A stretch of DNA of 64,000 nt from Escherichia coli (GCF_030013205.1 NZ_CP122648.1), one strand, 5' to 3'; numbered from the stretch's first letter, positions 6,229-31,363 are shown. The notes: generated by a model from the sequence alone, not told the origin. Program-made: numbers and translations.

Positions 6229-9119
<2,891 letters not shown>

Positions 9120-29612: not shown

Positions 29613-29927
29613 TCTTTCCGCGTCTCATCTTTATCGGTGAGACGCACCCTCAAAATTTCTTCTTCACTCCATTGTCTTTTCGCTTTACTCCCGTTCATTC
29701 AACTTAAGTCTCCATTTTTTTGCATTACTGCTATCTGACAGACCTCCGTTTTTTTGTTGATAAAACACTCTTTTTGACGTTTTTACAGACTAATTGAGCG
29801 TGAAGTGTGCAAACGATAAAAGTGTGGGAAAAATTGTTTGACTTATAAGTCTCAGAAAGTAATATGTGCGCCACGCAGCGACGATGAGCGATAAACAAGT
29901 TCTTCGAAGCACTCGTAAGAGGCGTGT

Positions 29928-30020
29928 GGTGAGGTGGCCGAGAGGCTGAAGGCGCTCCCCTGCTAAGGGAGTATGCGGTCAAAAGCTGCATCCGGGGTTC
30001 GAATCCCCGCCTCACCGCCA
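29928..30020 (+). tRNA. serV: tRNA-Ser (anticodon GCU)
   Basis: 93 nt; acceptor stem GGTGAGG/CCTCACC, anticodon loop CUGCUAA, long variable arm, CCA end. Confidence 0.9.
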
Positions 30021-30023
30021 TTT

Positions 30024-30100
30024 GCATCCGTAGCTCAGCTGGATAGAGTACTCGGCTACGAACCGAGCGGTCGGAGGTTCGAATCCTCCCGGATGCACCA
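30024..30100 (+). tRNA. argV: tRNA-Arg (anticodon ACG), copy 1
   Basis: 77 nt; GCATCCG/CGGATGC acceptor stem, anticodon loop CUACGAA, CCA end. Confidence 0.9.
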
Positions 30101-30164
30101 TCTCTTACTTGATACAGCTTTAGTAGCGGTATCAAAAAATCTGCAGTAAAGTAAGTTTCCCGAT

Positions 30165-30241
30165 GCATCCGTAGCTCAGCTGGATAGAGTACTCGGCTAC
30201 GAACCGAGCGGTCGGAGGTTCGAATCCTCCCGGATGCACCA
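30165..30241 (+). tRNA. tRNA-Arg (anticodon ACG), copy 2
   Basis: Identical 77-nt sequence. Confidence 0.9.
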
Positions 30242-30376
30242 TATTCTCCGAAATCTTCAGCAATGAAGATATCGAAGAGGTAGCGGAATTAACCGCAGGC
30301 ACCAGGAAGGATAACGTTGCTTTAGCAACGGCCCGAAGGGCGAGCCGCAAGGCGAGTAATCCTCCCGGATGCACCA
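30242..30376 (+). repeat. ~135-nt spacer repeat ending in a degenerate tRNA-Arg 3' fragment (AATCCTCCCGGATGCACCA)
   Basis: Direct repeat of 30517-30649 with scattered substitutions; terminal 19 nt equal the tRNA-Arg T-arm/acceptor 3' end. Confidence 0.7.
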
Positions 30377-30439
30377 TCTCCTAATTGATATGGCTTTAGT
30401 AGCGGTATCAATATCAGCAGTAAAATAAGTTTTCCCGAT

Positions 30440-30516
30440 GCATCCGTAGCTCAGCTGGATAGAGTACTCGGCTACGAACCGAGCGGTCGGAGGTTCGAAT
30501 CCTCCCGGATGCACCA
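30440..30516 (+). tRNA. tRNA-Arg (anticodon ACG), copy 3
   Basis: Identical 77-nt sequence. Confidence 0.9.
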
Positions 30517-30649
30517 TATTCTCCGTAATCTTCAGTAATGAAGGTATCGAAGAGGTAGCGGTATTAACCGCAGGCACTAGGGAGGATAACGTTGCGCCAG
30601 CAACGGCCCGAAGGGCGAACGCCAGTGAGTCATCCTCCCGGATGCACCA
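30517..30649 (+). repeat. Second copy of ~135-nt spacer repeat with degenerate tRNA-Arg 3' fragment (CATCCTCCCGGATGCACCA)
   Basis: See 30242-30376. Confidence 0.7.
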
Positions 30650-30796
30650 TCTTCTCCCACAAATTTCCTTCAAAAATATCTCATTTCTAAATAACTACTT
30701 TATCCATTTCCTGAATTTTCTTCTCCTTCGCCATCAGCGACAAAATCAAGCAATTACGCTAAAGTAGCGTCATATTTTTCGACTTGCGAGAAGACC

Positions 30797-31363
30797 ATGT
30801 ACGAGCGTTATGCAGGTTTAATTTTTGATATGGATGGCACAATCCTGGATACGGAGCCTACGCACCGTAAAGCGTGGCGCGAAGTATTAGGGCACTACGG
30901 TCTTCAGTACGATGTTCAGGCGATGATTGTGCTTAATGGCTCGCCCACCTGGCGTATTGCTCAGGCGATTATTGAGCTGAATCAGGCCGATCTCGACCCG
31001 CATGCGTTAGCGCGTGAAAAAACAGAAGCAGTAAGAAGTATGCTGCTGGATAGTGTCGAGCCGCTTCCTCTTGTTGAAGTGGTGAAAAGTTGGCATGGTC
31101 GTCGCCCAATGGCTGTAGGAACGGGGAGTGAAAGCGCCATCGCTGAGGCATTGCTGGCGCACCTGGGATTACGCCGTTATTTTGACGCTGTCGTCGCTGC
31201 TGATCACGTCAAACACCATAAACCCGCGCCAGACACATTTTTGTTGTGCGCGCAGCGTATGGGCGTGCAACCGACACAGTGTGTGGTCTTTGAAGATGCC
31301 GATTTCGGTATTCAGGCGGCCCGTGCAGCAGGCATGGACGCTGTGGATGTTCGCTTGCTGTGA
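30797..31363 (+). CDS. yqaB: HAD-family sugar phosphatase YqaB
   Basis: 188 aa, HAD motif I FDMDGT. Confidence 0.88.
   Translation: MYERYAGLIFDMDGTILDTEPTHRKAWREVLGHYGLQYDVQAMIVLNGSPTWRIAQAIIELNQADLDPHALAREKTEAVRSMLLDSVEPLPLVEVVKSWHGRRPMAVGTGSESAIAEALLAHLGLRRYFDAVVAADHVKHHKPAPDTFLLCAQRMGVQPTQCVVFEDADFGIQAARAAGMDAVDVRLL

Follow-up and report, generated by a model that had tools for sequence, protein, structure and literature searches.

Long repeats related to RtT RNA in a three-copy serV-arg tRNA array of Escherichia coli

The serV-arg locus of Escherichia coli contains a tRNA-Ser(GCU) gene followed by an array of tRNA-Arg(ACG) genes, and long repeats that end in a copy of the tRNA-Arg 3' end are placed behind some of these genes. 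What are these repeats, and how does an array with three rather than four tRNA-Arg genes relate to the one in K-12? Here, we address these questions for a stretch of 64,000 nucleotides from E. coli (GCF_030013205.1 NZ_CP122648.1), called the window, in which the array covers positions 30024-30649. A previous sequence-only reading had described the repeat ends as degenerate tRNA fragments, and the array as one that had lost a unit. The long repeats are instead short-form relatives of the RtT RNA (Rfam RF00391) of the tyrT operon, not decaying pieces of tRNA. We consider it probable that the window carries a natural three-copy serV-arg operon with short-form RtT elements, which would be excised by the tRNA 3' route, in an array reshaped by unequal recombination.

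The long repeats of the serV-arg array

The region corresponds to the E. coli serV-arg locus, as shown by the order csrA, tRNA-Ser(GCU), tRNA-Arg(ACG) array and yqaB that marks serV-argVYZQ, and it is 100% identical to E. coli ETEC4067 and to pig genomes of enterotoxigenic E. coli (ETEC). ARAGORN identified four tRNA genes in the window, adjacent to each other and all on the + strand, and the Rfam tRNA model agreed on their number and identity. As previously noted, there are three identical 77-nt tRNA-Arg(ACG) genes downstream of tRNA-Ser(GCU), with a mutual identity of 100% over 79 nt. We split the region at each CCTCCCGGATGCACCA, which resulted in three kinds of modules: T, the 77-nt tRNA-Arg; S, a leader of 63-64 nt that in every case is located 5' of a tRNA; and R, a repeat of 133-135 nt that in every case is located 3' of a tRNA and terminates in the 3' end of that tRNA. 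The order in the window is serV-T-S-T-R-S-T-R-trailer-yqaB (Table 1). The first spacer has the length of 64 nt that had been reported, and the 198-nt spacer between the second and third tRNA-Arg copies consists of a 135-nt R followed by a 63-nt leader. The two long repeats are here called window R1 and window R2, and the K-12 copies are named K-12 R1, R2 and R3 separately.

The repeats had been described as units of about 135 nt that end in a 19-nt copy of the tRNA. There are indeed two such repeats, of 135 and 133 nt, and the first ends in a match of 19 nt (AATCC...), whereas the second matches over 18 nt (CATCC...). The motif ATCCTCCCGGATGCACCA occurs five times in the window, at the three tRNA ends and in extra copies at 30359 and 30632, while the chance expectation for such 19-mers is about 5e-7. 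In agreement with the scattered substitutions previously observed, window R1 and R2 are identical at 120 of 135 positions, with 13 substitutions and two gap columns that are concentrated in the fourth hairpin and in one hairpin loop. Each repeat can be divided into three parts: a variable 5' portion that carries two small hairpins; a conserved core of three hairpins, namely CGTTGC-loop-GCAACG (h2), GCCC-GAA-GGGC (h3) and a variable GC hairpin framed by CGA...GAGT (h4, the fourth hairpin); and an exact copy of the 3'-terminal 18-19 nt of tRNA-Arg, which begins at about position 58 in the T loop, extends to CCA and is here called the cap.

The predicted folds are stable, with -53.0 kcal/mol for window R1 (z -5.0) and -51.6 kcal/mol for window R2 (z -4.2), and none of 200 shuffled sequences folded as well. 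The strand GCACCAGGGAGGAT, located just 5' of the core, is predicted to pair with the cap in a closing helix of about 13 bp, in which GCACCAGG(A/G)AGGAU (30299-30312; 30574-30587) pairs with AUCCUCCCGGAUGC. Since this helix uses the cap and leaves ACCA single-stranded, the repeat ends like the acceptor/T-arm half of a tRNA. The segment that corresponds to h4 in window R2, CGAACGCCAGTGAGT, does not fold. The consensus structure inferred with RNAalifold from 15 Arg-type elements in E. coli, Enterobacter, Brenneria, Hafnia, Phytobacter and others contains the 13-bp closing helix, h2, h3, h4 and a 5' hairpin, and shows compensatory changes at seven pairs.

Both repeats have the position and ends of RtT RNA. 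They are located immediately downstream of a tRNA, on the same strand and within a tRNA operon (R1 begins one base past the CCA of copy 2, and R2 one base past that of copy 3), they end in the cognate tRNA 3' end of about 19 nt including CCA, and they contain the core of the 3' half (h2 CGUUGC/GCAACG, h3 GCCCGAAGGGC, and GAGUAAUCC). A search with cmscan aligned both end-to-end to RF00391 with 26-33 bits and E-values of 1e-4 to 0.03, with near-identity at model positions of about 60-130, which cover AACGUUGC-loop-GCAACGGCCCGAAGGGCGAG...GAGUAAUCC and then the tRNA end. The exact core pattern has two matches in the window, both in the arg array, versus zero expected. The core is shared with the four RtT copies of tyrT-tyrV in K-12, which score 133-138 bits.

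Like the tyrT elements (rttR/rtT), the arg repeats belong to a tRNA operon and directly adjoin the 3' end of a tRNA, occur in tandem, terminate in a 19-nt cognate tRNA 3' end including CCA, contain the core AACGTTGC..GCAACGGCCCGAAGGGCGAG..GAGTAATCC, and use the 3' strand of the T stem in the closing helix. They differ in size, with 133-135 nt compared to about 175 nt for the tyrT repeats (the rtT RNA annotated in K-12 is 171 nt), and they have 5' hairpins of their own in place of the 5' half GGAUGAGAAcCUUCGaccaAGGUuCGAgucgAGC. Because the 5' half of the model is missing, we classify them as a short form of the RtT family. The closing strand of the E. coli Arg short forms is placed 2 nt from the core, and their closing helix spans the whole acceptor 3' strand so that only ACCA is unpaired, whereas 8 nt are unpaired in the Tyr elements. 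Genome papers list multiple "RtT RNA" genes, and our literature search found no description of the elements in the arg spacers, which are unannotated because they fall below the Rfam threshold.

Could the long repeats simply be neutral debris, that is, truncated tRNA-Arg pseudogenes that arose by imperfect duplication and are now decaying? Such an origin would account for their carrying only the last 18-19 nt of the tRNA, for the degenerate fourth hairpin in R2 and for the 10% difference between the copies. However, the caps are exact while the remainder varies, the core is conserved with compensatory changes from E. coli to Yersinia, Hafnia and Brenneria, and the same design recurs at other tRNAs. 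Moreover, the 5' part has no significant similarity to the tRNA body: an alignment of the 5' 70 nt to tRNA-Arg was no better than shuffled sequences (z -0.65 to 0.85). We therefore regard decay as very improbable. The view of R as a whole degenerate tRNA was rejected for the E. coli short form on the same alignment, and ARAGORN calls no tRNA within R. Nor does the earlier term "degenerate" fit the 3'-end copies, since the caps are perfectly kept and form the ends of conserved RtT-family elements.

No credible open reading frame (ORF) was found when the repeats were considered for coding potential (a Tpr-like peptide), only artefactual ORFs that overlap the tRNAs. A 32-amino-acid ORF with a TTG start (30592-30690, + strand) covers the R2 core and cap, extends into the trailer and is placed like tpr in the tyrT repeats. 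It has no counterpart in R1, and it was rejected because it is not conserved between the copies and its frame shifts with changes in loop length. Rfam matches to Plastid-ycf2, Plastid-psbI-rps4 and AaHKsRNA22 were considered spurious, being antisense or sub-threshold matches to tRNA-shaped sequence.

Table 1. Features of the serV-arg region, in window coordinates
Feature	Position	Strand	Basis
Sigma-70-like promoter candidate, TTGACT-16-TAATAT, about 60 nt 5' of serV	29838-29865	+	consensus scan
tRNA-Ser(GCU), serV	29928-30020	+	ARAGORN; Rfam tRNA 56.8 bits; annotated as tRNA-Ser in the identical ETEC4067 record
tRNA-Arg(ACG) copy 1	30024-30100	+	ARAGORN; Rfam tRNA 67.1 bits; ETEC4067 annotation
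Short spacer Sa, 64 nt, 5' leader of tRNA-Arg copy 2, hairpin TTGATAC..GTATCAA	30101-30164	+	fold -12.2 kcal/mol, z -1.9
tRNA-Arg(ACG) copy 2	30165-30241	+	ARAGORN; Rfam tRNA 67.1 bits; ETEC4067 annotation
Window R1, short-form RtT-like element, 135 nt	30242-30376	+	Rfam RtT 27.8-33.0 bits, E 1e-4 to 0.012
R1 5' hairpins	30254-30269, 30283-30296	+	predicted structure
R1 closing-helix 5' strand	30299-30312	+	consensus structure
R1 h2 / h3 / h4	30315-30330 / 30331-30341 / 30344-30353	+	
R1 cap, tRNA-Arg 3' end, 19/19 nt identical	30358-30376	+	
Short spacer Sc, 5' leader of tRNA-Arg copy 3	30377-30439	+	fold -12.9 kcal/mol, z -2.5
tRNA-Arg(ACG) copy 3	30440-30516	+	ARAGORN; Rfam tRNA 67.1 bits; ETEC4067 annotation
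Window R2, terminal short-form RtT-like element, 133 nt	30517-30649	+	Rfam RtT 26.2 bits
R2 closing strand / h2 / h3 (h4 degenerate)	30574-30587 / 30590-30605 / 30606-30616	+	
R2 cap, 18/19 nt identical to tRNA-Arg end	30631-30649	+	
Operon trailer, C-rich and G-poor (30650-30720: 19 C, 1 G), candidate Rho-utilisation site	30650-30755	+	composition
Weak terminator-like hairpin and T-run, just 5' of yqaB	30756-30779	+	consensus scan
yqaB (fructose-1-phosphate phosphatase), downstream flank that fixes the identity of the locus	30797-31363	+	ORF; annotation

The promoter candidate is a weak inference, since it is one of two matches in the scan versus 1.8 expected, and the terminator-like hairpin provides no evidence of function, being one of two matches versus 1.5 expected. 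The hairpin in the short spacers (30108-30135 and 30384-30411 in the window, and S copies in loci L005 and L008-L010) contains one pair that is C-G, U-G or U-A, so that the variants TTGATAC..GTATCAA, TTGATAT..GTATCAA and TTGATAT..ATATCAA form a compensatory series, which suggests that an RNA structure is kept in the tRNA 5' leader.

RtT-like elements at other stable RNA genes

To place the arg repeats in the family, one genome per species was scanned with the core pattern, and ARAGORN was run on the returned loci. The core was found downstream of tRNA-Tyr(GUA), Lys(UUU), Pro(UGG, CGG), Arg(ACG) and Arg(CCG), with hosts that include many Enterobacterales, from E. coli to Yersinia, Hafnia and Brenneria, as well as Gilliamella, Amphritea and Marinobacterium. 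A tRNA was present upstream of 103 cores within the fetched DNA, and for 77 of these the cap is an exact copy of the 3' end of that very tRNA (at least 16 nt). The copy measures 18 nt in 46 elements and 19 nt in 30, with no identity beyond its left edge in any of them. The closing strand changes with the cap, as seen from the pairs GGGGAAGGAT/ATCCTTCCCC for Tyr, CGTGAAGGAT/ATCCTGCACG for Lys, CGTATAGGAT/ATCCTATACG for Lys in Amphritea, AGAGGAT/ATCCTCT for Pro and GGGAAGAT/ATCTTCC for Arg in Hafnia. Among 74 elements, the stem of the fourth hairpin occurs in no fewer than 12 sequence versions, nearly all of them complementary.

Several of the relatives score high against RF00391: 90.8 bits for the Pro element, 77-81 bits for the Lys long form, 70.8 bits for the Arg long form in Yersinia (locus L077), 66.6 bits for the Arg(CCG) element and 55-61 bits for the Lys short form in E. 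coli. Since the Rfam model passes its cut-off on these relatives, the RtT family is already recognised at several tRNAs. The number of core copies per E. coli genome ranges from 1 to 11, with a median of 6.

Short forms are also present in the E. coli lysT-valT-lysW-valZ-lysYZQ operon, and these have the same arrangement of closing strand, GGAT, AA, core and cap after each tRNA. They differ in having a tRNA-Lys 3'-end cap, a length of about 98 nt and a 10-bp closing helix, and their scores of 55-61 bits exceed the cut-off only because the tRNA itself supplies the match to the 5' model half. In the K-12 operon (L137; 1631-1765, 1920-2068, 2224-2369, 2446-2577 and after 2653), this short form follows every tRNA-Lys; at lysQ, a terminator hairpin then precedes a long-form element whose h2 is a variant, and after the cap this terminator is repeated. 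More generally, long forms at Lys, Pro and Yersinia Arg (L024, L029, L035, L041, L077, L092 and others) have a terminator-like hairpin and a T-run upstream, for example AAAGGCGCCCTAAAGGCGCCTTTTT. The long-form element may thus be located downstream of the tRNA's own terminator, as a unit of terminator, element and cap that is repeated in tandem. The long-form Arg element in Yersinia nurmii (L077) contains TAGAACCGAGCGGTCGGAAGTTCGA, a 23-nt near-copy of tRNA-Arg that spans anticodon stem through T loop; the core of about 60 nt comes next, and then the T-stem 3' strand and the acceptor end. The element thus resembles an incomplete tRNA copy into whose T loop the core has been inserted.

The core was also observed 3' of 5S rRNA in rrn operons (L019, 161-185; L048, L049, L062, L079, L100, L111; and E. 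coli L082, locus coordinates 7830-7854, minus strand). Elements of this type carry at their end the copied 3' terminus of 5S together with trailer sequence (AACTGCCAGGCATCAAAT), and an upstream GGCAGTT is complementary to AACTGCC; they have no Rfam RtT match. In Pseudomonas, Stenotrophomonas, Alloalcanivorax and Marinobacter (L037, 3785-3809; L038, 3577-3601; L014, L030, L039, L058, L070), the core is part of another kind of repeat, and the 120 nt upstream contain no tRNA. This repeat consists of a AAAAACTGC..GCAGTTTTT hairpin, the core and a TGGCTGCCAGGGATGGCAAGCCA hairpin, with a second copy within about 30 nt in L037 and L038, and no Rfam family matched it in the three loci scanned (L038, L058, L070).

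This distribution raises the question of whether R is, or derives from, a small mobile DNA module that inserts near the 3' ends of stable RNA genes, duplicates about 18-27 nt of its target and is then amplified, in which case the 3'-end copies would be target or attachment duplications and not features of a functional RNA. No fewer than five tRNA species, as well as 5S rRNA, are followed by the same core, which in each case has the host gene's own 3' end as cap, and the duplication invariably has its left boundary within the T loop, 18-19 nt away from where the tRNA ends. The E. coli repeat runs about 8 nt into the trailer (TATTCTCC versus TCTTCTCC), the presence/absence alleles are precise, and a related core is found in the non-tRNA repeats of Pseudomonas, Stenotrophomonas, Marinobacter and Alloalcanivorax. 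A link between rtT-like sequences and interspersed repeats was also made in an earlier study (PMC2965389). However, no transposase, integrase or terminal inverted repeats were found at the locus, where the ORFs are artefacts over tRNAs and a search for inverted repeats or transposon ends found none, and the body carries compensatory changes typical of a selected RNA fold. Homologous recombination between repeats of 19-27 nt explains the precise losses equally well. We consider such a module unlikely; it concerns the origin only and is compatible with a present role as RNA.

Elements that integrate in the T loop of tRNA genes leave direct repeats from the T loop to CCA. The 3'-end copies could accordingly be scars of the attL/attR type from an island or phage that integrated into the T loop of tRNA-Arg and has since been deleted (for general background on integration at tRNA genes, see PMC9897764). 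As in the tRNA 3'-end repeats that flank islands and prophages, the duplicated segment runs from the T loop to CCA, and its length of 18-19 nt fits this expectation. Unlike such repeats, those in the arg array are separated by only about 115 nt, with no integrase, cargo gene or credible ORF, and this intervening sequence folds as RNA and is conserved across genera and tRNA types. The elements are further arranged in tandem within the operon between functional tRNAs, and 5S rRNA is not a usual integrase target. An integration scar is thus highly unlikely, and the attachment-site-like role once proposed for the 3'-end copies finds no support, as there is nothing mobile between the repeats and their body shows covariation of the RNA type.

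Variation of the array among E. coli genomes

K-12 MG1655 has the four tRNA-Arg genes argV/Y/Z/Q, as had been noted, with spacings of 198, 62 and 198 nt. The two loci share the csrA-serV-arg array-yqaB context, an identical tRNA sequence and the same three module types. They differ in that K-12 contains four tRNAs and three R, in the order T R1 Sa T Sb T R2 Sc T R3 (T R S T S T R S T R), while the window contains three tRNAs and two R, which in K-12 labels corresponds to T Sa T R2 Sc T R3 (T S T R S T R). Relative to K-12, the window is thus without K-12 R1 and, separately, without one T plus Sb; its Sa differs by one base from Sa in K-12. Because of the module order, and because the first short spacer is Sa rather than Sb, no single contiguous deletion links the two arrays, and derivation from K-12 by one deletion was ruled out. 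At least two events or a different ancestry are needed. The suggestion that the array had lost one unit through recombination between repeats therefore stands in that the repeats do recombine, but not in that the window is K-12 minus one unit.

To survey the array, we used the joined 1.5-kb flanks as query and determined the inter-flank distance in 60 genomes taken evenly down a ranking of 5,425. Apart from one array disrupted by an insertion sequence (IS) and one split array, the distances range from 354 to 1312 nt. The K-12 type of 901-904 nt is found in 23 genomes, followed by 633-638 nt in eight, 768-769 nt and 1035-1041 nt in seven each, 672-674 nt in six and 629 nt in two, with single genomes at 354, 471, 492, 736 and 1312 nt. 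Decoding of representatives revealed at least 12 module orders, from T S T R with two tRNAs to T R S T R S T R S T R S T R with five, and including arrays with a single R, such as T S T S T S T R. Thus, E. coli arrays contain 2-5 tRNAs and 0-5 long repeats, and the K-12 order is the commonest of many arrangements. Among the 58 arrays of the sample that could be scored, 52 (about 90%) have four tRNA-Arg copies and 4 (about 7%) have three, with two copies in one array and five in another.

Not even the terminal R is always present: in L135 and L136 it is exactly absent and the tRNA CCA is joined to the trailer, with R removed precisely between the tRNA end and the cap. In L007, there is a deletion of 73 nt between two GCACCA hexamers. 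A hybrid spacer of 102 nt was observed as the third spacer in O55:H7 and some other strains (L006, L007, L136), with the first approximately 39 nt like the 5' end of R (TATTCTCCGTAATCATCAGTGATGATGG) followed by an S-like leader; the core and cap are missing. In the BL21(DE3) assembly NZ_CP081489.1 (L138, 2883-2945), and also in the Rosetta2-DE3 and BL21-RIPL records, the array consists of serV-T-R-S and a tRNA-Arg cut after about 62 nt (...AACCGAGCG) that is joined to an rhs-like (DUF6531) pseudogene and ybbP, and this fusion places the breakpoint of the rearrangement inside the tRNA-Arg gene. In one genome of the sample (H32, NZ_CP069980.1, 828645-834018), an IS4-like ISVsa5 is located between the array flanks, which gives a gap of 2,374 nt and three alignment pieces.

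The order in the window was recovered as a single full-length alignment in at least 38 genomes among the matches listed, from several lineages. Of those with this order among the listed matches, 13 are pig ETEC with at least 99.9% identity, and others are about 97% identical; 67 genomes cover at least 80% of a longer query. The exact order in the window thus occurs in roughly 1% of the complete genomes and represents a rare natural three-copy variant. Short-read assembly can collapse tandem repeats of 140-275 nt, and the three-copy state might in principle be a collapsed four-copy array. This is hardly credible given that the same order is present in these complete genomes of several lineages and that it is not a simple collapse of the K-12 order.

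Proposed processing and its implications

In the mechanism that we propose, the whole array would be transcribed as one precursor. The R elements would be excised by an endonuclease cut just past CCA, followed by exonuclease trimming that would halt at CCA and the closing helix. Excision via the tRNA 3'-end route is suggested by the sequence after each real or copied CCA being alike (T[A/C]T[T/C]CTCC...) and by R having the tRNA's own end; the 3'-end copies, which the sequence-only reading had thought could be processed, are thus probably RNA-processing ends. The rtT RNA is reportedly excised and stable, a result said to go back to Bosl and Kersten in 1991, and the product of R would be a compact, stable RNA of about 134 nt, comparable to the rtT RNA of tyrT. 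The Arg-form R resembles an acceptor/T minihelix, since its helix covers the whole acceptor 3' strand, and this likeness predicts a possible RNase P cleavage before G30299. The feature is not general, as 8 nt are left unpaired in the Tyr and Lys elements. The tyrT repeats show Rho-dependent termination, and by analogy termination in the array might occur at the C-rich, G-poor trailer (30650-30720). For its maturation, tRNA-Arg2 relies on RNase T and RNase PH (PMC3378859). Finally, the 77-nt tRNA, the leader of about 63 nt and the cap repeats of 19-27 nt would serve as substrates for unequal homologous recombination, which would continually alter the numbers of tRNAs and R elements and could account for all variants observed, with T S T R S T R as one outcome.

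Several points weigh against this interpretation. The gathering cut-off of 45 bits for RtT is not reached, neither in the window (27.8/33.0 and 26.2 bits) nor by the arg copies of K-12 (22.8-31 bits), and the RtT 5' half, with its outer strand, GAUGAGAA and the T-arm-like CUUCGa..AGGUUCGA, aligns poorly or truncated. The scan pattern fixes h2 and h3, and their invariance across the family is therefore due to ascertainment. The covariation of the closing strand in its T-stem part could partly have been copied from the tRNA's own T stem rather than reflect selection for pairing, and the cross-type complementarity test gives a clear outcome with the Tyr and Lys types, which is not the case for Arg or Pro, whose T stems resemble each other. 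Excision and stability of the arg elements are taken over from rtT RNA by analogy. Moreover, any function of R would be dispensable or redundant, because h4 is degenerate in R2 and some E. coli are without R at some positions.

With regard to function, the 3' external transcribed spacer of leuZ is a sponge of small RNAs (sRNAs) and an example of a regulatory RNA cut from a tRNA precursor. The arg elements would likewise be by-products of tRNA-operon processing with a possible function of their own. They differ from such RNAs in their architecture, which mimics a tRNA end, and in having no known sRNA partner or Hfq binding. The rtT RNA has been linked to the amino-acid-starvation response in a second-hand account.

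As such, the locus is ordinary: a known operon in a rare natural copy-number variant, with unannotated members of a family that Rfam already has. The window itself carries limited weight, as the operon is a textbook case and the variant is already present in dozens of published genomes. The tRNA-Arg(ACG) decodes the main arginine codons. Deletion of argYZQ lowers tRNA-Arg2 16-fold and slows growth in LB (PMC13170351). Since the dosage of tRNA-Arg genes affects growth, the natural arrays of 2-5 copies represent real, recombination-driven variation in tRNA supply among E. coli.

The design of the family is very clear in the arg elements, where a helix formed with the copied 3' end of the host tRNA closes off a conserved core. 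The reuse of this architecture behind several tRNAs and behind 5S rRNA, with correspondingly altered closing strands, suggests either that the RNA has a function under selection or that insertion occurs by a specific mechanism. It is conceivable, albeit doubtful, that the RtT-like module is a widespread gammaproteobacterial RNA device or selfish element that always adopts the 3' end of the preceding stable RNA and, by pairing it with a matching upstream strand, presents a mimic of this end, or that it marks an undescribed route of insertion at such ends. If so, the mimic could exert an effect in trans on enzymes or sensors that recognise the 3' ends of stable RNAs, such as 3' exonucleases, the CCA-adding enzyme, RNase P, RelA or end-targeting toxins, and the arg elements in the window, with their 13-bp helix and ACCA, would be the most complete acceptor-stem mimic of the family.

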